Source of the DNA: a bacterium
GTDB taxonomy: Bacteria > Patescibacteriota > Patescibacteriia > UBA9570
Direction: 5' to 3'
DNA: 64,000 nucleotides
Assembly (NCBI GenBank): GCA_030698395.1
Contig: JAUYKW010000026.1
Span: 12,797 to 76,796, forward strand
The position numbers were made by a program, and so were the translations under genes. Below are positions 1,083-50,166 of this stretch, one piece after another. Position 1 is the stretch's first letter. The number at the start of each line of letters is the position of its first letter. The notes beneath the pieces are model-generated. The model was not told where the DNA came from. It worked only from the letters and a program-made list of their open reading frames with translations, and ran no database searches.

Positions 1083-1454
1083 TTACGGTTTTGGAATAGC
1101 AGTTTCTGCTGCTGGATTTACTTGCAAACGTTCTACAGAAATTGGCTCGCCTGTTTTAATATCCATACCATATGTACCATCCTCTATTCGTTCTAAAGCA
1201 GCTTCAACTTTTTTAAGATAATCTTCTAACTGACCTGTAATTGATACATTAACTTCGTATGCTTGAACTTCATCTGGCGAGTCTGATCCAGCATCTAAAT
1301 AGTTATCATCACCAAAGTTTGGAAACTTTGCTGCCCATTCACCTGGTACATGATCACCGATGTCTTTATCCGCAACCGAAGATAGTTCTTTTTCGATCTC
1401 TACTTTAAGATCTGAAAGTTTATTTTTAAATTCGTCTAATTGTACTTGTTCCAT
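1083..1454 (-). CDS. DksA/TraR-family (YteA-like, no Cys4 finger) regulator
   Basis: 123 aa with an N-terminal coiled coil and a C-terminal EDGTYGxDxxTGEPI motif typical of DksA-like proteins lacking the zinc finger. Confidence 0.5.
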   Translation of the reverse strand: MEQVQLDEFKNKLSDLKVEIEKELSSVADKDIGDHVPGEWAAKFPNFGDDNYLDAGSDSPDEVQAYEVNVSITGQLEDYLKKVEAALERIEDGTYGMDIKTGEPISVERLQVNPAAETAIPKP

Positions 1455-1498: not shown

Positions 1499-1723
1499 CT
1501 ACTCTTTGGCAGTTGCATCCACCTCAGCTTGCTCTGCACCAGCTTTTCGTTCTGCATCACGTAATGCTCTAGCTGCTGCTATAGCATCTCGAATGTCACC
1601 TTCTCGAGCACGTTGTCCAGCATCACCTTGTGGCACATCCTCATGTTTTTTTTCTTCATCCACTTCTAAATCAAAGTCATTATCTGATTGAATATTAATA
1701 TTTTGATTATTTTGAAAATTCAT
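1499..1723 (-). CDS. small acidic hypothetical protein (74 aa); the ORF-track start at 1822 is rejected in favour of the ATG at 1723
   Basis: The ATG at 1723..1721 is preceded by AGGGGTAAAT (SD-like). The upstream extension overlaps a terminator hairpin. The C-terminal half is locally GC-enriched and Ala/Arg/Glu-rich. Confidence 0.4.
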   Translation of the reverse strand: MNFQNNQNINIQSDNDFDLEVDEEKKHEDVPQGDAGQRAREGDIRDAIAAARALRDAERKAGAEQAEVDATAKE

Positions 1724-1733
1724 ATTTACCCCT

Positions 1734-1760
1734 AAAAAACACTTAGGGGTGTCCCCCCTG
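1734..1760 (-). terminator. intrinsic terminator or attenuator hairpin immediately upstream of the small ORF
   Basis: The minus strand reads CAGGGGGGACACCCCTAAGUGUUUUUU: a 5-bp GC stem, a 5-nt loop and a U6 run. Confidence 0.4.
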
Positions 1761-2165
1761 ATTACTATGGCCACAAAGGACCAGTTTTTTTGTAATAGTG
1801 CGAAACACCCCGATATCTTCAAGTTAACCTTGTTTAATCCCTTTTACAAGGGATCAAGCAATGGATTTCCGCTTGAAGACGATTGGAAGTGCAACGTACC
1901 CACGTAAGCCGATGTCCGTAGGATACTCCCGCAAATGGGGACCCTCTAGTATGCCGCTGCCCCTCGATTTCACCTAGAGTGAAATATAATTGAGGGCTGG
2001 CGGAAAAATACATTTTTGTTTTTGTTTTAGTACGGCTTGCATACCAGAGAAATGATTATTTCCAAGTTGTAATACAGTTAGAAACAATGAGCTCTCTGTT
2101 ATTCGTACTGGTACGAAGCATTTAAGTTTTAAAGAACGACTTGTTTCTTCATTCGTTACTGTAGA
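1745..2165 (-). ncRNA. candidate structured non-coding RNA or long 5' leader (roughly 400 nt, class unknown)
   Basis: No credible ORF on either strand. It is bounded by a near-consensus sigma70-type promoter (TTGACC-17-TATACT) at its 5' end and a terminator hairpin at its 3' end. Internal GC-rich helices include CCGCUGCCCCUC...GAGGGCUGGCGG enclosing a GAUUUCACCUAGAGUGAAAU hairpin (plus-strand reading; the complementary helix forms in the minus-strand transcript). Confidence 0.3.
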
Positions 2166-2169
2166 TTAA

Positions 2170-2198
2170 AGTATAGCATGATTTTTGTCTATGGTCAA
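2170..2198 (-). promoter_or_regulatory. sigma70-like promoter (-35 TTGACC 2198..2193, 17-nt spacer, -10 TATACT 2175..2170)
   Basis: Read directly on the minus strand. It would drive leftward transcription through the non-coding region towards the dksA-like/lspA genes. Confidence 0.5.
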
Positions 2199-2205
2199 CT
2201 ATATA

Positions 2206-2241
2206 GATATAAAAATAGCTAACATTAGCTATTTTTATATC
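2206..2241. promoter_or_regulatory. 36-bp perfect palindrome GATATAAAAATAGCTAACATTAGCTATTTTTATATC immediately upstream of the -35; candidate operator or UP element
   Basis: Perfect dyad symmetry. It contains the 14-mer ATAAAAATAGCTAA, which recurs upstream of a TTGACA at 29025..29038. Confidence 0.4.
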
Positions 2242-2326
2242 CTTGACAACACTATCAACAGGTTAATCCACAATGTTTTTATCCAATAAACTTATCCACA
2301 ATCTGTGCATAAGTCATGTTATAGTT

Positions 2327-2912: not shown

Positions 2913-5063
2913 TTATTTACCTAATAAAGCCTTACGTGATAGAGAAATTCTACCAGTTCTAGAATCTACTTCTAATACTTTAACTTCAATAACTTCTCCC
3001 TCTTTAACTACATCCGATACTTTATTAATTCTTTCCTGAGCTATTTCTGATATGTGAACCATACCATCTTGATTTGGTGTTAACTGTACAATTGCACCAA
3101 TTTCCTTTTCTACATTGTTTCTATCAGTAATAATCTTTAAAATCTTACCTTTATAAACTTCACCAGGCTGGATTTCTTTTACAATTCCTTCAATAATTTC
3201 TAGTGCTTCAGCTAAGGCAACGTTATCTTTGGTTGTAACGTATACAAGACCAGTCTCTTCAATGTCAATTTCCACGCCAGTTTTCTCAATAATACCATTG
3301 ATAACTTTTCCACCGGGACCAATAAGTTCACCAATTTTCAATGGATTAATTTGAATAGTCTTAATTTTTGGTGCATATTCTGATAATTCTGCACGCGGTT
3401 CTGGAATAACAGCTGTCATTTTCTCTAATAGCTCTAATCTAGCAGTTTTTGCCTTTTCCAGAGTATCACGTACCATATCTAGAGTTATTCCATCAAGCTT
3501 AATGTCTAATTGTACAGCAGTTACGCCTTCTTTAGTGCCTGCAACTTTAAAATCCATAGATTCTTCATGATCCTCAACATCTTGAATATCAGTAAGAATT
3601 TTATAATCTTCCTTATTACCTTCGCCATTTAGCGCTAATCCCATTGCAATTCCGGCAACTGGGCTTTTAATTGGTACACCAGCATCCATTAAGCATAAAG
3701 TTGAACCACAAATGGAGCCTTGTGATGATGAACCATTAGAAGATAATACATCTGATCGAACTCTAATAGTATATGGAAACTCACTTTTTGCAGGTAATAC
3801 AGGAACTAAAGCTTTTTCAGCTAATGCCCCATGTCCAATTTCACGTCTTCCTGGACCACGCATTGGTCTTGCTTCACCTACAGAAAATGGTGGGAAGCTA
3901 TAATGATGAAAATAATTTCTCTTCTCATCATGTCTCATAGTATCTAGAATCTGCTCATTACTTGGAGAACTTAAAGTAGCAACAGATAAGATCTGTGTAT
4001 CACCACGAGAAAACATACCAGAACCATGTACACGTGGCACTCCGCCAGCTTCTACATTAATTTCTCTAATCTCTTCAATTCCGCGATCATCTACTCGCTT
4101 TCCATCTGCAAAAATACGTTTAATCATTGCCTCTTGAAATAAAAAATCCAAGTGCTTAACAGCAAATTTAGCAGCATCTGCTTGTTCTTCAGTAAATGCT
4201 TCTTTTAATGCTAAATTAGCATTAGACATTCTAATGGCTTGTTCACGTTTATTACCAGGGCCAAATAATTCGCTACCTCTTTCTGCAAAATATTTTACTG
4301 CTGCTTCTTCACCAACTTTCTTCATCTCTAACTGCTCTGCAGTTAGTTCAGGATCGGTCATTACTCTCTTTTCTAGCCCAATTTCACTACCTATTTTATT
4401 AATTAATTCAATTACTGGTTCAATTTCTTTTAAGCCAAATTCAATTGAATTATATACTGCATCTTCACTTGCTTCACTACCATCTGCTTCAAGCATGATA
4501 GTCTCCATATCACGACCAGAAACAAACACATTCAAATCTGCCTCTTTAACTTCCTCTGCTGATGGATTTAATTTCATTTCACCATCCTTTGTGGTAACTA
4601 CACATCCACCCAAAGGTCCTGCCCATGGAATATCAGATACTGTTAAAGCAGCTGATGCACCAATTAAACCAGCAATATCTGGATCACATGAAGGATCATA
4701 AGATAAAACACTAACAGTTACTTGAATATCATTCCGAATTGACGTATTTGTAAATAATGGCCGGATACATCTATCAATTATACGAGCAGATAACATTGCT
4801 TGATCTGATGGTCTACCTTCACGCTTAATAAAACGAGAACCAGAAATTTTTCCGGCTGCAGACATACTTTCTTGAAATTCAACCATTAGAGGGAAATAGT
4901 CGATTTCTCCTCGGACAGATTCTGACATTACAGCTGTAACCAAAACCATGGTATCGCCATACTGGACAGTACATGACCCATTAGTTTGCCCTGCGTATCT
5001 ATTAAACTCAATAGCTAAAGGCTTTCCGCCCCATTCTAACTCGTATTTCTTAATATTTTTCAT
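2913..5063 (-). CDS. pnp: polynucleotide phosphorylase
   Basis: 716 aa with two RNase PH domains plus KH and S1 domains. Classic rpsO-pnp synteny. Confidence 0.95.
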   Translation of the reverse strand: MKNIKKYELEWGGKPLAIEFNRYAGQTNGSCTVQYGDTMVLVTAVMSESVRGEIDYFPLMVEFQESMSAAGKISGSRFIKREGRPSDQAMLSARIIDRCIRPLFTNTSIRNDIQVTVSVLSYDPSCDPDIAGLIGASAALTVSDIPWAGPLGGCVVTTKDGEMKLNPSAEEVKEADLNVFVSGRDMETIMLEADGSEASEDAVYNSIEFGLKEIEPVIELINKIGSEIGLEKRVMTDPELTAEQLEMKKVGEEAAVKYFAERGSELFGPGNKREQAIRMSNANLALKEAFTEEQADAAKFAVKHLDFLFQEAMIKRIFADGKRVDDRGIEEIREINVEAGGVPRVHGSGMFSRGDTQILSVATLSSPSNEQILDTMRHDEKRNYFHHYSFPPFSVGEARPMRGPGRREIGHGALAEKALVPVLPAKSEFPYTIRVRSDVLSSNGSSSQGSICGSTLCLMDAGVPIKSPVAGIAMGLALNGEGNKEDYKILTDIQDVEDHEESMDFKVAGTKEGVTAVQLDIKLDGITLDMVRDTLEKAKTARLELLEKMTAVIPEPRAELSEYAPKIKTIQINPLKIGELIGPGGKVINGIIEKTGVEIDIEETGLVYVTTKDNVALAEALEIIEGIVKEIQPGEVYKGKILKIITDRNNVEKEIGAIVQLTPNQDGMVHISEIAQERINKVSDVVKEGEVIEVKVLEVDSRTGRISLSRKALLGK

Positions 5064-5147: not shown

Positions 5148-5798
5148 TTAATTACTTATTTTTATATATTGATCTAAACTTTCCAGAAAATCATCTGAGC
5201 CTCGGAAATCGTACAAATAATCGTCTGAAATTACTTGAACCACTGATATTTCTGAACCATCCTTTGCACTTGCTATGGTTAATCTTTCAGCAACTTGATT
5301 ACCTACACTAATTGTTTCTCTATCTAGTACATCAGTTTCATTAAGAGAAATACCCTCATAACTACTAGGCATTACGCTTAAAGTATTCTCTGGTTCAAAT
5401 GTATATGTAGTTATCTCATCGTATTTAGCAGTAGTAGCAGGCACTAAGACTTCTAGGTTGAATTCTGTTAAATCTATTCCTGCTCCGCCTGTAGCAGTGA
5501 TATCGCTAACATCCTCTGCAAGTGTTTCATCTTGATTCTCTGCTTTATCTAAACTATCAGAATCATCTGTTTCTGAATCTGCTTCATTATTAATATTTGT
5601 ATCAACTGAATCTACCTCAGTATCAGAATCATCTGTGACAAATTCTTCGTCATTGGAATTGTTTGAATCTAGATAATTTTCTTCCTGCTTAAAATCAGTT
5701 GATTTTTGAGAAACCACAGTAACTGCAATGATTACAATCAATCCAGCGACGATAACGAATATTCCAAAAATTGTACCTTTTTGCTTTCGCTTAGACAC
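5148..5798 (-). CDS. membrane-anchored, highly acidic hypothetical protein
   Basis: N-terminal TM helix followed by a D/E/S/T-rich low-complexity region and a C-terminal globular part. Confidence 0.5.
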   Translation of the reverse strand: MSKRKQKGTIFGIFVIVAGLIVIIAVTVVSQKSTDFKQEENYLDSNNSNDEEFVTDDSDTEVDSVDTNINNEADSETDDSDSLDKAENQDETLAEDVSDITATGGAGIDLTEFNLEVLVPATTAKYDEITTYTFEPENTLSVMPSSYEGISLNETDVLDRETISVGNQVAERLTIASAKDGSEISVVQVISDDYLYDFRGSDDFLESLDQYIKISN

Positions 5799-23935: not shown

Positions 23936-25111
23936 ATGGGTACCCAGCACGTTAGTCGCAATGTCATCATCGTCGGCGATTCTCCCAACAAGAACGCTGG
24001 CGAACATCATCCCTTCACCATGGTAGACGGAGCCATCTACCACACTGACATGGTCGGCATCGATCCCCGAGCCAGCGCCGTCAACTACGGCCTCGCACGC
24101 ATCTCCGGCTATGGAGCCTGGCGCCGTCCCGAGGACGATACGCACTGGATGTTCCGCCCGGAAGACCACATGACGCGCATTCACCAGAACGCTTTGGCCA
24201 TTCCCGTTCTGGGAGATTTCCCGAGCACAAACATGCTCGTAGACTGGTCCATAACCAGTCTGGGCCTCGGCATCCCTCACCTCACGCGGGCCAAGGACGT
24301 CTACGGACGGACGCTAGTGGTGCAGGGTGGCGTCGCTCTCGGTGTTGGAACCCGCGGTCACGGCCACGTGATCAACTTCACGCGAGACCTGACAGAATAT
24401 GTTCCGGCTGAAGGGCTGGATCTGCTGTTCCCTGGCATGCTCTGTCGCCGACCCAACATTTTCATGGGTCGCCCCTTCGAAAAGGCGGCCGGCAACTACG
24501 ACTTGGCCCACTTCTGGAAAGGCGTCGTTGCCAAGGGACTAGGCTTCAACGAAATTCTGATGCTCAACTGGAACGGCACCGAAATCGCCGAGACCAGTGG
24601 TAGCATCCCGGTAGCCATCGTCCGCCTGTCGGACAAGAAAATTCAGATGCGTGTGCCACGCCTGGAATCCGGCCGACTGAATTCGATCACCACTGACACA
24701 CTCATCTACTTGGCCCATAAGCTGGGCTGGGAAGTAATCGTGAACCAACGCCTGACATTGGATCACCTGATCCATGCGGACGAACTCTGGGTGGCTGGTT
24801 CCTGGAGTGGTCTTGCTAGTGTGAGGAACATTAGCTTGGACCAACGCTGGATGCGTGAAGCACCCATCCTTCCACCTGAGATCTTCAGAGACGGAGTAGG
24901 GCCGGCATACAAAGCGTGGCTGGATGAAAATTTTCAGCCCGTGAATGCTCGCAAACTGGGCTGGACCCCTTCCTTCGCACCTGGTCCACTCGGTACTCAG
25001 CTCCGCGAACTCTACTGGGGCGTGGTGCGCAACCGCCCAGAATTCCGGCGCATCGATCGTCCCAGCAACTGGAATGTCAAGGTGAACCCGATCGTCCCAA
25101 ACACGGAATAA
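23936..25111 (+). CDS. aminotransferase class IV (BCAT/D-amino-acid aminotransferase fold)-like protein, high-GC
   Basis: FRPEDHMTRIHQNA, NWNGTEIAETSGS, ITTDTLIYLAHKLGWEV and ADELWVAGS resemble fold-type IV PLP enzymes. GC is roughly 58 percent, against about one-third in the backbone. Confidence 0.5.
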   Translation: MGTQHVSRNVIIVGDSPNKNAGEHHPFTMVDGAIYHTDMVGIDPRASAVNYGLARISGYGAWRRPEDDTHWMFRPEDHMTRIHQNALAIPVLGDFPSTNMLVDWSITSLGLGIPHLTRAKDVYGRTLVVQGGVALGVGTRGHGHVINFTRDLTEYVPAEGLDLLFPGMLCRRPNIFMGRPFEKAAGNYDLAHFWKGVVAKGLGFNEILMLNWNGTEIAETSGSIPVAIVRLSDKKIQMRVPRLESGRLNSITTDTLIYLAHKLGWEVIVNQRLTLDHLIHADELWVAGSWSGLASVRNISLDQRWMREAPILPPEIFRDGVGPAYKAWLDENFQPVNARKLGWTPSFAPGPLGTQLRELYWGVVRNRPEFRRIDRPSNWNVKVNPIVPNTE

Positions 25112-25258
25112 AGATCTAGGAGGACACCTGGAGCCACGTACCAATGTACGTAGCAACAGGTGGGGGAAATTGTTATGCATGCATAACGTTTCCCCGCCTC
25201 CCCAATGGTTATTAGCTACTTAATAGCTATCGGTGAGAATCAAAATAACTTAAATAAA

Positions 25259-25296
25259 AAACAGTAGAGACATTCCATGGCATGTCTCTACTGTTT
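25259..25296. repeat. REP-like palindrome AACAGTAGAGACATTCCATGGCATGTCTCTACTGTT (1 mismatch)
   Basis: Lies between convergent genes. Same family as the 19348 copy. Confidence 0.65.
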
Positions 25297-25330
25297 ATCA
25301 TGTCCCTACTTTATAAATTTCTCTATCTAA

Positions 25331-26392
25331 TTATTCATTATACTGTGCCGCTCTTGATTCCGGTCTTCTATCTTTATGTGGCATAGCTGCTCTAGCATCT
25401 CTAGGGCTCATAGCATTTGAACCTCTTGAAGTTTTTCTTGATACACCTTTATGTTTTCCTGCTAAATAGGTTTCTAACTTACCAACTGCATCAGCTCTAT
25501 TCTCTGGATCATCTAAATTTCTAGATAGTTGTTCTTTATATCGTAAATCATTTTCAACTGTATCAGTATCATCTATTGGATACCCATTAGCATCCATTTT
25601 TTCTCCAGCTATTGGCACTACTTCACCCGTCAATTCTCCATATGCAGTATTCCAATTTTCTCCAGCAAACTGAAGACTTGCCGCAACTGCATAAGCCTCT
25701 CTTGCAGCTTTAGCTCTTCGTATATTAACTTCAGAATTAGAATCAAGTACAGCTTGGCCAGCTTTCGCTAACTCCTGTCTTAACTGTACAACTGTTTCTG
25801 CTTGAGCTTTTACAAAATTTGCTTGCTCTTCTAAAAGTGAATTCGTTTCAACTGCTTCTGAAGTTCGAACTTCTCGTATTCCACTTGCTGCATTTTCTCG
25901 TACTACATCTTCACTTACTCTACTAGCAAAATCTGATCCTGCTGACTCTGGACTAGCTGATGGACCTGCATCAGTCTCTATTTCATCTTCATTAATTGCT
26001 TCCATAATTCCTTTATCAAGCACTTTCAATTCCCTAACAGCGCCTTGAAATAAAGAATATGCTTCATCCCTAGCCTGCTTTGCAGCAGTAACTGCTTCTT
26101 CATATTGTGTTAAATCCCCACTCCCAGAAAATTTACTTGATTCATCCAAAATAGATTGAGCTACAACTAGATTTTCATTTTCCGCATCATAGCCAGCTTT
26201 CAAGCTATCAATTTTCGTTATTAATGCAGCTCTTTGTTCTCCTGCAGATACTTGTGCCGATTCATCACCATCTCTGGCACCTTGCATCATCACATCTTCT
26301 CTAGATCTACTAACTGGCATTCCAGAATCTCTACGAGGTTCTGCTGGAGTAGTTGGCATTTTTAATCTTGGTTCTCTCTTTGGTTCTCCCAT
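25331..26392 (-). CDS. acidic, low-complexity, predicted coiled-coil hypothetical protein
   Basis: No TM segment and no recognisable domain. Ala/Glu-rich. Confidence 0.45.
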   Translation of the reverse strand: MGEPKREPRLKMPTTPAEPRRDSGMPVSRSREDVMMQGARDGDESAQVSAGEQRAALITKIDSLKAGYDAENENLVVAQSILDESSKFSGSGDLTQYEEAVTAAKQARDEAYSLFQGAVRELKVLDKGIMEAINEDEIETDAGPSASPESAGSDFASRVSEDVVRENAASGIREVRTSEAVETNSLLEEQANFVKAQAETVVQLRQELAKAGQAVLDSNSEVNIRRAKAAREAYAVAASLQFAGENWNTAYGELTGEVVPIAGEKMDANGYPIDDTDTVENDLRYKEQLSRNLDDPENRADAVGKLETYLAGKHKGVSRKTSRGSNAMSPRDARAAMPHKDRRPESRAAQYNE

Positions 26393-28962: not shown

Positions 28963-29050
28963 CTAAACGATTATAGCATGGCCTTATTATTGTATAAAGC
29001 TACTTATTTTAGCAGTAAATAGTTATAAAAATAGCTAATAATAACACCCC

Positions 29051-29078
29051 TTGACATAATCTTAAATTGTGTTACGTT
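29051..29078 (+). promoter_or_regulatory. candidate promoter (-35 TTGACA 29051..29056, 16-nt spacer, -10 TACGTT) preceded by the ATAAAAATAGCTAA motif
   Basis: Read from the sequence. The 14-mer is shared with the 2209..2222 site. Confidence 0.35.
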
Positions 29079-29131
29079 AACCTATTCTTTTGGCGAAAAC
29101 CAAAGGAATAGGGCTAAAATAATGGTTTACA

Positions 29132-47957: not shown

Positions 47958-48193
47958 GCTTTTAAATTTATGCCGATCGAATACAAATTATTCAAACGAC
48001 CAAATAGTATAGCGGACTCTTGCCTATTTGTCAAGAGGTATGATAAAGCCAAGCATCAATAATGTACGTATTTAAGCTAACATTAGCAAAATTCTATGTT
48101 TTTAAACTCTTTATAAGAACGTATCAATAAATACGAACTTGACTCATATCTAGTTATTCACTACGGTGATGGTCCGGTTGCACTCATAGCTAT

Positions 48194-48721
48194 GTGTGCG
48201 ATGACTGGGCCTTGAAAAACACTCACGAAGCCACTGTGCTTCTAGCGGAGACGAAATTGCAGACCGACGCCCCAACCCCTGACCTCACCCCCCGCCCTCA
48301 GAACTCTACGAAGACGCTCCCGACCGCACAGATCATCGCCGAAATCGTGATGGCTACTGGCGAAGACCGCAACCGCCTCGTGGTCATGCTGGCCATCGAG
48401 ATCGAGCTCCGGCGGATCGCGTACGAGCTGCTCACGCTCGCGCCGAACAAGATCCACGACGTCGGACAGCTGACCCCCTGCTTGGAACAGGCCGAAGCAC
48501 TGGACGAACTGATCCTCAAGCACCAGCTCGATGAGCGTGTGACCGACGTGATCGTACTGCTCGATGAGCGTGTGACCGACTCGTCAACCATCATCCGGGC
48601 CGCGAACATGCTCGCCCAGGCCGCGAACCGGATCGCGACGCAGGCCAAGGAGGTGGCGGATGATCTGCGCAAGGATCGCCTCAAGCCCCCCGAGCCGTTC
48701 GTAGCGATCAACGGCTGCTGA
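48194..48721 (+). CDS. high-GC hypothetical helical protein, member A of a tandem paralog trio
   Basis: DRNRLVVMLAIEIELRRIA segment is shared with member B. It contains a 21-bp direct duplication (LDERVTD twice). Confidence 0.45.
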   Translation: MCDDWALKNTHEATVLLAETKLQTDAPTPDLTPRPQNSTKTLPTAQIIAEIVMATGEDRNRLVVMLAIEIELRRIAYELLTLAPNKIHDVGQLTPCLEQAEALDELILKHQLDERVTDVIVLLDERVTDSSTIIRAANMLAQAANRIATQAKEVADDLRKDRLKPPEPFVAINGC

Positions 48722-49002: not shown

Positions 49003-49434
49003 ATGCGCCTTCCCTCCGCGGCAAGCACCATGCTTCGCTGTCACCGCCTTCTCGCCAAGATCGAGCTCACCGACCACAACCGCACCCTGCAGTTGTGTGC
49101 CATCCCGGCACTTCAGGTGGAGCTCTACCGCATTGCGTCTATGATGACGCGACGCGAAGATGTGAGACCTGAACAGGTTCACAAGATTCTCAAGGAGATT
49201 CGCGATATCGTGACTCTCGCCGAAACGCACCAAATGCTGATCGGCAATACGAATGAAATCGAAGATCTCCTCAACCAAGCTGAGGTCCGCGAACTGGCAT
49301 GGTCCGTTGTTCGGCACCTGGTCACCAATGCGATCGATGCATTGGACCTGTACGCTGATCAACTGGACGCCGACGTGGACGTCGAGCTACTGAGTATCGG
49401 CATGATGGCACTCGCTCCGAGTGTCCACGCCTGA
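49003..49434 (+). CDS. high-GC hypothetical helical protein, member B of the paralog trio
   Basis: DHNRTLQLCAIPALQVELYRIA aligns with member A. Confidence 0.45.
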   Translation: MRLPSAASTMLRCHRLLAKIELTDHNRTLQLCAIPALQVELYRIASMMTRREDVRPEQVHKILKEIRDIVTLAETHQMLIGNTNEIEDLLNQAEVRELAWSVVRHLVTNAIDALDLYADQLDADVDVELLSIGMMALAPSVHA

Positions 49435-49746: not shown

Positions 49747-50166
49747 ATGACTGACCAGTACCTGTCGTGGGCGAGAAATGCTTTGCGGAGCACAGATGAG
49801 AACCTGCGTATCGCATCTACCGTGCCGAACCTGAACACGAACTTTGTCAGACGACTCCTCGTGAGTCGTAACCAGATCAACGTCTTCCTGACCGGTCCGC
49901 TCACGCAGCCGGGACTGGTGACGTTCGACCTGCACATCACCTGCCAGGAAGAACTGGCTGATCTGGTCGCCAAGTTGCTGCACATCTTCGAAGACATCGG
50001 CCACGAGGACATGCTCGAGGCGCAGTATGTGAGCGGCCTGCTCACTTCGGCCGTCGGGCAGACCACAGTCGCTTCAGCACTCTTGCAGAAGGCTCTGCGA
50101 GACGGCGAGGAGATCAAGAAGGTCGAGTCCATCGAAGGACCGTCGATCTGGTCCGCTGGTTGCTGA
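49747..50166 (+). CDS. high-GC hypothetical protein, member C (more distant)
   Basis: Same strand, size and composition as A and B, with weak TDENLRIA similarity. A GC hairpin plus T-run follows at about 50283-50305. Confidence 0.4.
   Translation: MTDQYLSWARNALRSTDENLRIASTVPNLNTNFVRRLLVSRNQINVFLTGPLTQPGLVTFDLHITCQEELADLVAKLLHIFEDIGHEDMLEAQYVSGLLTSAVGQTTVASALLQKALRDGEEIKKVESIEGPSIWSAGC

Follow-up and report, generated by a model that had tools for sequence, protein, structure and literature searches.

The 64-kb stretch of patescibacterial DNA analysed here (contig JAUYKW010000026.1; hereafter the window) carries on its minus strand, on which the coordinates of the module described below are read, a region of about 425 nt downstream of the guanylate kinase gene gmk that almost certainly encodes a genuine structured RNA. 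We consider it probable that this RNA is the product of a stand-alone, independently transcribed gene, that it is a structured non-coding RNA acting in trans, and that its gene is a core gene of Kerfeldbacteria-like Patescibacteria. An earlier inspection of the letters of the window (the sequence-only reading) had marked some 400 nt here as devoid of a plausible open reading frame (ORF) and had proposed a riboswitch or attenuator, or else an independent small RNA. Comparison with relatives bears out a new structured non-coding RNA, to which the independent small RNA fits best, while the riboswitch or attenuator is weakened by the promoters found in one subgroup of relatives (subgroup B), by the size of the RNA and by the restriction of the 74-aa ORF downstream of it to the window's own subgroup. 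A scan of Rfam together with a comparative analysis of the relatives yielded no family match and helices that are both conserved and covarying.

Evidence for the fold comes from a structure-blind MAFFT alignment of 20 homologous sequences (A2), which was folded with RNAalifold and compared with controls in which the pairing partners were slid by 1–3 columns. The consensus recovers the long hairpin Pa, the middle of the long hairpin Pb, the long hairpin Pc/Pd and the terminal stem (Table 1). In total, 89.2% of the alignment cells pair, against 40–56% after sliding, the covariation score is 0.565 against 0.09–0.20, and changes on both sides are seen in 35 of the 44 pairs; not one of 500 shuffles attained any of the observed pairing or covariation measures. 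Pa (A2 helix 1) comprises 17 pairs, 12 of them changed on both sides, with 89% of cells paired; its basal helix is nearly invariant in sequence and its tip varies in length. In Pc/Pd (A2 helices 4–6) all 17 pairs are changed on both sides, at 88–95% paired.

The central domain was further described by a covariance model built from four close sequences, to which 15 members were aligned. Its core is 94.3% paired, compared with 41–46% after sliding, and 24 of the 29 pairs show double changes. Helices 1–4 of this model, which belong to Pb, are 75–100% paired with double-sided changes in 15 of 19 pairs, the 24 double-changed pairs include all 7 of the apical hairpin of Pb, and the internal loop CAG/GCA of Pb is strongly conserved in subgroups A and B; helix 6, corresponding to hairpin Pf, is 97% paired and double-changed in four of its five pairs. 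A further helix, P1, joins the 5' region to the segment just past Pf and finds its support in subgroup A only, where it forms six contiguous Watson-Crick pairs in the window (CGUACC with GGUACG) and shows a compensatory insertion in two metagenomic copies, L021 and L042 (GCCGUUAC with GUAACGGC). A candidate helix between the 5' end and the 3' domain (AGUAC-UUU-GACAC with GUGUC-C-GUACU) was rejected, as it is lost in L005 and other members.

The same central domain contains a pseudoknot, formed between 6–7 nt lying a few bases 5' of an A-rich tract (in subgroup C, before an inserted hairpin) and the loop of Pf. A pure Watson-Crick run of at least six pairs is present in 17 of 19 cognate pairs, as opposed to 15% of shuffles and 9.7% of non-cognate pairs, and the energy of the cognate duplexes was reached by none of 5000 partner permutations. 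The pairing is kept through at least 12 different sequences, including GGGCUA with UAGCCC (L001), GGCUGG with CCAGCC (L004), CCAGGC with GCCUGG (L021), UAAGGC with GCCUUA (L068), CUAGUC with GACUAG (L059), CCGAACA with UGUUCGG (L066) and CUCGCC with GGCGAG (L069). The A-rich strand is the most conserved element of the RNA, making up 10 of the 25 invariant columns of A2 and being present in every homologue.

The composition, predicted stability and reading frames of the region point the same way. Its GC content is 52–53%, against a surrounding background of about 26–40% and a genome of about 35% GC, and its predicted fold of -127.9 kcal/mol (z = -4.9) was matched by none of 100 shuffles. The absence of a plausible ORF claimed by the sequence-only reading holds: a 59-aa ORF (1834-2013) and a TTG-started extension of the downstream 74-aa ORF do exist within the region, neither of them conserved, and each of the 20 homologues has 2–13 stops per sense frame in all three frames. 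A protein-coding reading of the 59-aa ORF, which has no Pfam match, was discarded, since its matches to homologues are short patches that coincide with conserved RNA helices. Gene callers have nevertheless placed hypothetical ORFs on the RNA in two relatives, one of 62 aa in L064 (3779-3967) and one of 80 aa in L073 (3723-3965); these are not conserved and are probably spurious.

The RNA is found across the relatives of the window. Gmk relatives with 72–78% identity come from metagenome-assembled genomes (MAGs) labelled Candidatus Kerfeldbacteria or Patescibacteria, and RNA homologues lie downstream of gmk in all six loci L001–L006 (nhmmer E-values of 1e-5 to 1e-31). A pattern derived from the most conserved part of the RNA brought four further metagenome copies (L021, L029, L042 and L045), all syntenic; these are the real ones among the 46 loci returned by that scan. 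Gmk homologues from a large protein collection added twelve further RNA contexts (L057/58, L059, L060, L062–L066, L068, L069, L073 and L074). Altogether, the RNA is present in 22 of 23 Kerfeldbacteria-like lineages with a Gmk identity of at least about 60%, the only lineage without it being L061, whose downstream synteny is broken as well. The detailed analyses cover 20 loci, with L073 and L074 checked besides, and the homologous RNAs measure 360–430 nt. They fall into the window's own subgroup A, subgroup B (L006, L045, L063, L064 and L068) and subgroup C (L059, L060, L066 and L069, and also L073 and L074). A search with the covariance model R1, which is too narrow for aligning subgroup C, gave no further homologues, its matches in L013/L027 and L018/L036 being false positives in coding or low-complexity DNA, and a scan of viral sequences returned only a non-homologous contig. 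The MAG records of L002, L003 and L005 are titled 'uncultured Gammaproteobacteria bacterium'; with a Gmk that is 75–77% identical to that of the window and the same synteny, they are probably mislabelled bins.

The surroundings of the RNA are conserved in the order rpsO, pnp, gmk, the module itself (DnaA boxes, palindrome, promoter and RNA), a small ORF in some lineages, a dksA-like gene, lspA, the RNHCP gene and comM. In the window, the minus strand upstream of the module carries the PNPase gene (2913-5063) and then gmk (2327-2893), and downstream of the RNA follow the 74-aa acidic ORF, the dksA-like gene, lspA and an RNHCP-domain gene. In L066, gmk is followed by one additional gene, and boxes, palindrome, promoter and RNA stay together as one unit before the dksA-like gene. 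The positional orthologues of the dksA-like protein in relatives match PF01258 (zf-dksA_traR); the 123-aa protein of the window (1083-1454) has no Pfam match at E <= 0.01 and lacks the four zinc-finger cysteines.

A promoter of its own precedes the RNA in every lineage. The near-consensus promoter TTGACC-17-TATACT proposed for the window stands up to comparison: it agrees with the consensus at 10 of 12 positions, carries in addition the TG of an extended -10 element (the spacer ends TGc) and would start transcription at about 2163. The motif TTGAC(N)-N16-18-TAnnnT recurs in 20 of the 20 homologous loci, almost always with a TG before it, and also in L073 and L074. 

Upstream of it lies a conserved cluster of DnaA boxes that the sequence-only reading had missed. 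The TTATCCACA site is the sole perfect DnaA box of the 64-kb window, and two boxes with one mismatch lie within 49 bp; 1–3 boxes with at most one mismatch occur no further than 115 bp upstream of the -35 element in 20 of 20 loci, compared with an expectation of about 0.04 at the rate seen over the whole window, and boxes are found in L073 and L074 too. The sites are several, of the TTATCCACA type, clustered and conserved. In L068 a DnaA box, TGTGGATAA, sits within the spacer of the RNA promoter (3655-3663), and in L006 one lies just past the predicted RNA start (about 5710-5720); these are the positions that would be expected for repression by DnaA.

Between the boxes and the promoter, the sequence-only reading had described a perfect 36-bp palindrome and taken it for an operator. 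The inverted repeat is there (2206-2241), not as a perfect 36-mer but as two arms of 17 nt (2206-2222 and 2225-2241) that are 100% complementary across a gap of 2 nt. The operator idea has gained support. A CTAA-N2-TTAG core is found in 15 of 20 loci, with near-copies in L001 and L005, and the distance from its centre to the start of the -35 element is 24–25 bp in 13 loci and 34–35 bp, one helical turn further, in two; the core is conserved as sequence and not through compensatory change, and the DNA between it and the -35 element is not conserved across loci. Together, the conserved sequence, the phased distance and the variable spacer argue for a protein site from which RNA polymerase is acted upon at about -61, and suggest that the palindrome is the binding site of a regulator; in addition, it may terminate gmk or work as an UP-like element. 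Its place is taken in L059 and L060 by a GC-rich hairpin, which in L060 is followed by a T run. In Escherichia coli and Bacillus subtilis, DnaA-box clusters outside oriC and class I activator sites near -61 offer parallels, the former in having TTATCCACA-type boxes just upstream of a promoter, the latter in acting from a fixed distance to the -35 element that shifts by about one helical turn; unlike in these systems, the repeat found here could serve as a terminator of gmk, and the sites are candidates.

The combination of palindrome motif and promoter occurs only once in the window. The full 12-mer of the palindrome core, GCTAACATTAGC, has its only second copy in the window at 48076-48087, and 10-mer copies of the core elsewhere in the relatives were set aside, since they fall within coding sequence and appear to be chance occurrences. 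An exact copy of the 14-mer ATAAAAATAGCTAA is indeed present at 29025-29038, as had been noticed, and matches with at most one mismatch number four in the window against 0.16 expected, two of them being the arms of the palindrome itself. The regulator that this recurrence was thought to imply, shared with an nrnA-like gene, has fared less well, for the copy at 29025 is a half-site only and stands at a different distance from its -35 element. That element, a TTGACA, is found downstream of the half-site within 29051-29130, and the 5' leader of the gene concerned, of the DHH family, contains a 13-bp hairpin (CCTATTCTTTTGG-cgaaaa-CCAAAGGAATAGG).

At its other end, the RNA closes with a GC-rich terminal stem in 20 of 20 detailed loci, and also in L073 and L074. 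A terminator scan of the window finds this GC-rich stem followed by a U tract. The sequence-only reading had seen in GGGGGGACACCCC a terminal hairpin followed by six U residues and the Shine-Dalgarno (SD) sequence of the next ORF; the letters, the U tract and its position before the SD are confirmed, and the separate hairpin is not, for GGGGGGACACCCC forms the 3' side of a longer helix with compensatory changes. Energy minimisation yields this long-range helix for 19 of 20 homologues (the exception being L063), and its closing part passes through the states GUCC/GGAC, GUUC/GAAC, CGC/GCG and ACA/UGU versus AGA/UCU, with variants such as GGGGUGUCC with GGACACCCC, GGGGUGUUC with GAACACCCC, GGGGCGC with GCGCCCC, GGGCGCACA with UGUGCGCCC and GGGCGCAGA with UCUGCGCCC. 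A small UNCG hairpin followed by a terminator of 4–5 bp was considered as an alternative 3' end and fits less well than the long-range helix.

Table 1. Features of the RNA module and its surroundings in the window (positions of the 64-kb stretch; RNA features listed in order of transcription).
Feature	Position	Strand	Remarks
DnaA-box cluster (3 boxes)	2264..2312		after the gmk stop codon, ahead of the RNA promoter
DnaA box TAATCCACA	2264-2272		
DnaA box TTATCCACA	2292-2300		perfect
DnaA box TTATGCACA	2304-2312		opposite strand
Inverted repeat GATATAAAAATAGCTAA-tg-TTAGCTATTTTTATATC	2206..2241		AT-rich; core GCTAA-N2-TTAGC; candidate regulator site near -61
Sigma-70-type promoter	2170..2198	-	TTGACC (2198-2193), 17-nt spacer with TG (2178-2177), TATACT (2175-2170)
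Whole RNA, about 425 nt	1734..2163	-	predicted start to end of U tract
5' motif GUUCUUUAAAAC	2126..2137	-	GUACUUUGACAC or GUACAUU in relatives; conserved, A2 columns about 30-42
Helix P1, 5' strand GCUUCGUACC	2110..2119	-	partner 1900-1891 (GGUACGUUGC)
Long hairpin Pa	2045..2098	-	basal helix CAGAGAG...UUUCUCUG; base purine-rich versus pyrimidine-rich
Pseudoknot, 5' strand AAGCCG	2033..2038	-	partner CGGCUU (1911-1906, Pf loop)
A-rich single strand AAAACAAAAACAAAAA	2013..2028	-	family consensus AAAAYAAAAAYAAAA, 15-16 nt; predicted single-stranded
Long hairpin Pb	1949..2011	-	GUAU/AUAC outer helix, CCGC/GCGG, 3x3 loop CAG/GCA, CCCUC/GAGGG, internal loop, apical hairpin
Joining strand UAGAG(G/A)	1942..1948	-	conserved; G99, A100 and G101 invariant in alignment A4
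Hairpin Pe (UCCC...GGGA)	1927..1941	-	core-model helix 5: 5/5 pairs double-changed, 92% paired
Hairpin Pf (CCUACG...CGUGGG)	1899..1922	-	loop holds the pseudoknot 3' strand (1911-1906)
Long hairpin Pc/Pd	1817..1878	-	outer helix CUUCAAG/CUUGAAG; internal loops GGAAAUCC and ACAAGGUUA; apical AUCCCUU-GUAA-AAGGGAU
3' terminal composite stem-loop	1746..1811	-	closing helix GGGGUGUUUC (1811-1802) with GGGGACACCCC, around a variable hairpin (1796-1761)
GGGGGGACACCCC	1758-1746	-	3' strand of the long terminal helix
U6 tract	1734..1739	-	intrinsic-terminator tail; SD AGGGG follows directly, ATG at 1723
74-aa acidic ORF	1499..1723	-	starts 16 nt past the RNA; in the window's subgroup only; probably expressed by read-through

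The DNA between the 3' end of the RNA and the dksA-like gene bears on whether the RNA is a gene in its own right or the leader of what follows. In subgroups B and C the terminators are clear, with 7–8 GC pairs and a U-rich tail of up to eight U residues (L006 and L063). All five members of subgroup B have a perfect TG(C/A)TATAAT promoter between this terminator and the dksA-like gene, L045 even a second terminator between the two, and in subgroup C good terminators are followed by spacers of 47–194 nt. This combination of a terminator with a separate promoter for the dksA-like gene makes the RNA most likely an independent gene and not a riboswitch. 

The most serious competing explanation, which we hold to be unlikely and still well ahead of those that follow, is nonetheless that of a leader acting in cis, be it a large riboswitch or an attenuator responsive to a protein or an RNA, whose core would be the sensor and whose 3' stem would be a regulated terminator gating the 74-aa ORF, the dksA-like gene and lspA. 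The layout of the window, from promoter through structured RNA, GC-rich stem and U tract to an SD and an ATG 16 nt away, is that of known riboswitch and attenuator leaders, and so is the constant association with one gene family, with at most one small ORF separating the RNA from the dksA-like gene behind it. Moreover, two G-rich strands of subgroups B and C are able to pair with the same C-rich 3' strand, and the CCCCUAA of the window has a possible partner in the SD UUAGGGG. 

Against a leader speak the five relatives in which a strong terminator and then a perfect extended -10 promoter precede the dksA-like gene, one of them with a second terminator; the layout without an intervening promoter is seen in the window, L004 and L062, and not in L006, L045, L063, L064 and L068. 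Even in the window, the dksA-like gene has a promoter-like site of its own (1489-1461). The first downstream gene, too, varies by subgroup (the 74-aa ORF, the dksA-like gene or a 275-aa ORF). With 360–430 nt and a second conserved domain, Pc/Pd, between core and terminator, the RNA is much larger and richer in domains than the usual design of aptamer plus expression platform, and no known aptamer class matches it, Rfam having returned no cis-regulatory family. In subgroup A, finally, the single long-range 3' helix dominates without a convincing competitor. A regulated terminator is the less economical model when set beside an independent unit with read-through. Within the window's subgroup, such read-through probably feeds the next ORF, with the RNA serving as its leader as well; the 74-aa ORF itself has no Pfam match. 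The CCCCUAA at the end of the 3' stem and the UUAGGGG of the SD region (1729-1749) are complementary, as seen in the window sequence only, and the SD of the 74-aa ORF could be masked in read-through transcripts whenever the long 3' helix is unformed.

That no known family would account for the RNA had been suspected from the window's letters, and the searches uphold it. At the gathering score, Rfam 15 recognises only four tRNAs in the whole window, and at E <= 1 nothing relevant; ARAGORN likewise reports four tRNAs in the window and no tmRNA. At E <= 10, searches of the RNA region, of three homologues (L001, L063 and L060) and of the isolated Pb hairpin returned only terminator-like noise and no family match. 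These last searches used 75–800 nt from four family members, and their lists reach down to 4–8 bits for other families. By these searches and comparisons, the RNA is new and fits no known RNA family tested.

An extremely diverged housekeeping RNA (RNase P RNA, signal recognition particle (SRP) RNA, tmRNA or 6S RNA) that escapes the standard models is improbable on this evidence. The idea has its attractions, as the size, strong promoter, pseudoknots and core-gene distribution would fit RNase P RNA or tmRNA, and RNase P RNAs of the candidate phyla radiation (CPR) often fall below Rfam thresholds, a threshold of 5 bits being needed for some CPR genomes (PMC8172020). None of the four families, however, was matched at E <= 10 in four family members. 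For RNase P, the Rfam models gave no match at gathering score nor at E <= 10 in the window, L001, L063 and L060, where filters and the E-value cut-off could hide a match of a few bits.

We therefore also compared the RNA by hand with the E. coli rnpB and ffs sequences. Bacterial RNase P RNA (RF00010/RF00011; E. coli rnpB) is similar in length, in its long-range pairings and in its strong promoter, and its P4 strands GGAAAGUCC...ACAGAACCCGGCUUA resemble the GGAAAUCC...ACAAGGUUA of Pc/Pd in two A-U pairs, a bulged U, a C/G block and the flanks GGAAA and ACA(A/G). But P4, which pairs GGAAAGUCC with ACAGAAnnnGGCUUA, is a universally conserved long-range pseudoknot with most of the molecule inside it, whereas the strands in Pc/Pd close a local hairpin of 18 nt and vary in 6 of 20 members; the real pseudoknot of the present RNA, unlike P4, varies freely in sequence. 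Neither the specificity domain nor P15 has a recognisable counterpart here, and a mapping of the helices onto P1–P18 fails, the P4-like helix being local and not universal. In L001, L004 and L005 the 5' region repeats the 5' strand of Pf, which would give a P2-like topology; this pairing was dropped as well, as it shows no covariation outside those loci and the local Pf does covary.

The likeness to SRP RNA is confined to one loop. Over CGCCAGCUCC/GGAGGCAGCG (as in L001, 2874-2935), Pb is identical at 15 of 20 positions to GGUCAGGUCC/GGAAGCAGCC of helix 8 of E. coli 4.5S RNA, all differences preserving or improving the pairing, and its CAG/GCA loop agrees with the symmetric loop CAGG/AGCA in orientation and in the pairs on either side, being 3x3 here and 4x4 in SRP. 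Where 4.5S RNA has a GNRA loop 3 bp above the symmetric loop, however, Pb has a further helix with a UUCG loop; the asymmetric loop of SRP RNA is missing, the SRP-like loop is not conserved in subgroup C, and no SRP model matches even the isolated Pb hairpin. For tmRNA, there is neither an Rfam or ARAGORN match nor a tRNA-like end, and no conserved tag frame follows the A tract, stops being present in all frames. 6S RNA (RF00013) is a rod of about 180–200 nt with a large central bubble; it gave no match, and the fold here is multi-domain with a pseudoknot.

More distant still is the prospect that DnaA boxes, AT-rich repeat and transcript together form a replication origin or an origin-like element, with the transcript as its activator or primer, which we regard as very improbable: a conserved DnaA-box cluster and an adjacent stretch of 26% GC do lie beside a strong promoter in every lineage, but with only 1–3 boxes per locus, and an activator or primer transcript would need no 40-odd covarying pairs, no pseudoknot and no terminator. 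The trend in GC skew is unchanged at the locus and the flanking genes are co-oriented, a weak test here because the skew follows the coding strand; these two observations make an origin unlikely and control of the promoter by DnaA the better reading.

The closest company of the RNA is found among the orphan large structured bacterial non-coding RNAs, namely OLE, ROOL and GOLLD (PMC12286853), the raiA motif and HEARO. Like these, it measures several hundred nucleotides, combines numerous covarying helices with pseudoknots and with strongly conserved single strands, is provided with its own promoter and terminator, and is restricted in phyletic range yet core within that range. The raiA RNA resembles it further: its gene neighbour is constant, which might suggest a riboswitch, and yet this neighbour has its own promoter. 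Unlike them, the present RNA has no sequence or structure match in Rfam 15 and its hosts belong to CPR/Patescibacteria, and none of them is known to have its A-rich strand within a pseudoknot or its promoter module of DnaA boxes and palindrome. A search of the literature found no described non-coding RNA of this kind from CPR or Kerfeldbacteria.

Returning to the independent gene, which we favour, its operation may be pictured as follows. The near-consensus extended -10 promoter would drive a transcript that folds into four parts: Pa; the core with its pseudoknot, where the Pf loop pairs with the strand immediately preceding the A-rich tract, so that Pb and Pe are enclosed; Pc/Pd; and the GC-rich terminal stem with its U residues. 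The terminal stem would both terminate transcription and protect the 3' end, leaving a discrete and abundant RNA that would act in trans. Its rigid core would offer a binding platform made up of the A tract and the conserved loops, most likely to a protein partner, so that the RNA could be the scaffold of a ribonucleoprotein (RNP) or a sequestering RNA, with a catalytic role possible. Transcription would be tuned by DnaA through the 1–3 upstream boxes and by a dimeric factor on the GCTAA-N2-TTAGC palindrome, helically phased near -61. Where the terminator is weak or lies directly against the next gene, as in the window's subgroup, transcription past it would supply the 74-aa ORF and the RNA would double as its leader. 

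An abundant trans-acting RNA or RNP scaffold with DnaA-tuned transcription is our best guess. A more specific version of it is tentative, and we would sooner expect some part of it to fail than the whole to hold: a large pseudoknotted RNA class specific to Kerfeldbacteria-like CPR, being the subunit of a so far undescribed RNP or a ribozyme, with the A-rich strand as its active or partner-binding element and its synthesis coupled to replication via DnaA.

Several observations sit uneasily with an independent, trans-acting RNA. In subgroup A the U run is often interrupted or displaced, and in the window, L004 and L062 an ORF begins 13–16 nt further on, an arrangement that looks equally like a leader. 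In subgroups B and C, two copies of the G-rich 5' strand could rival each other for a single C-rich 3' strand, an alternative pairing of the sort that attenuators employ, and the RNA never lies more than one gene from the dksA-like gene, which could mean a functional coupling in cis. Complements of the A tract, as candidate targets in trans, were searched for in the window and none is enriched. The start of the RNA, its 3' end, its abundance and its action in trans are all deduced from sequence. Highly diverged CPR housekeeping RNAs, finally, can escape Rfam thresholds (PMC8172020).

What lends the RNA its interest is the conservation of a gene of about 400 nt, together with its promoter module, across a whole class, which implies an important function that is missing from the annotation. 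To our knowledge, large and highly structured RNAs with many covarying helices are rare, and nearly all of those that are understood are ribozymes, RNP cores or global regulators; the CPR/Patescibacteria, with their tiny genomes, are as far as we know almost unexplored for RNA genes. Were the RNA indeed to represent a new RNP or ribozyme class, it would be a lineage-specific 'housekeeping' RNA of a standing comparable to OLE or 6S RNA. It is set apart by the invariant A-rich strand of 15–16 nt in a pseudoknot, two conserved internal-loop motifs and a promoter that combines DnaA boxes with a phased palindrome. The ORFs called on it in L064 and L073 are a warning to annotation pipelines.

Two further regions of the window stand out by composition. 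Between 48076 and 50250, three plus-strand ORFs (48194-48721, 49003-49434 and 49747-50166) have about 55–60% GC in a genome of 35% GC; they have no Pfam match and about 25% mutual identity, and each is preceded by a TTGAC-type -35 element and a (C/T)TACGGT-like -10 element. The second copy of the 12-mer GCTAACATTAGC lies about 57 bp upstream of the promoter of the first of them. A second stretch, of about 50% GC, extends over 24000-26000 and comprises an ORF with a class IV aminotransferase domain (23936-25111) and one without a Pfam match (25331-26392); it may be acquired DNA.

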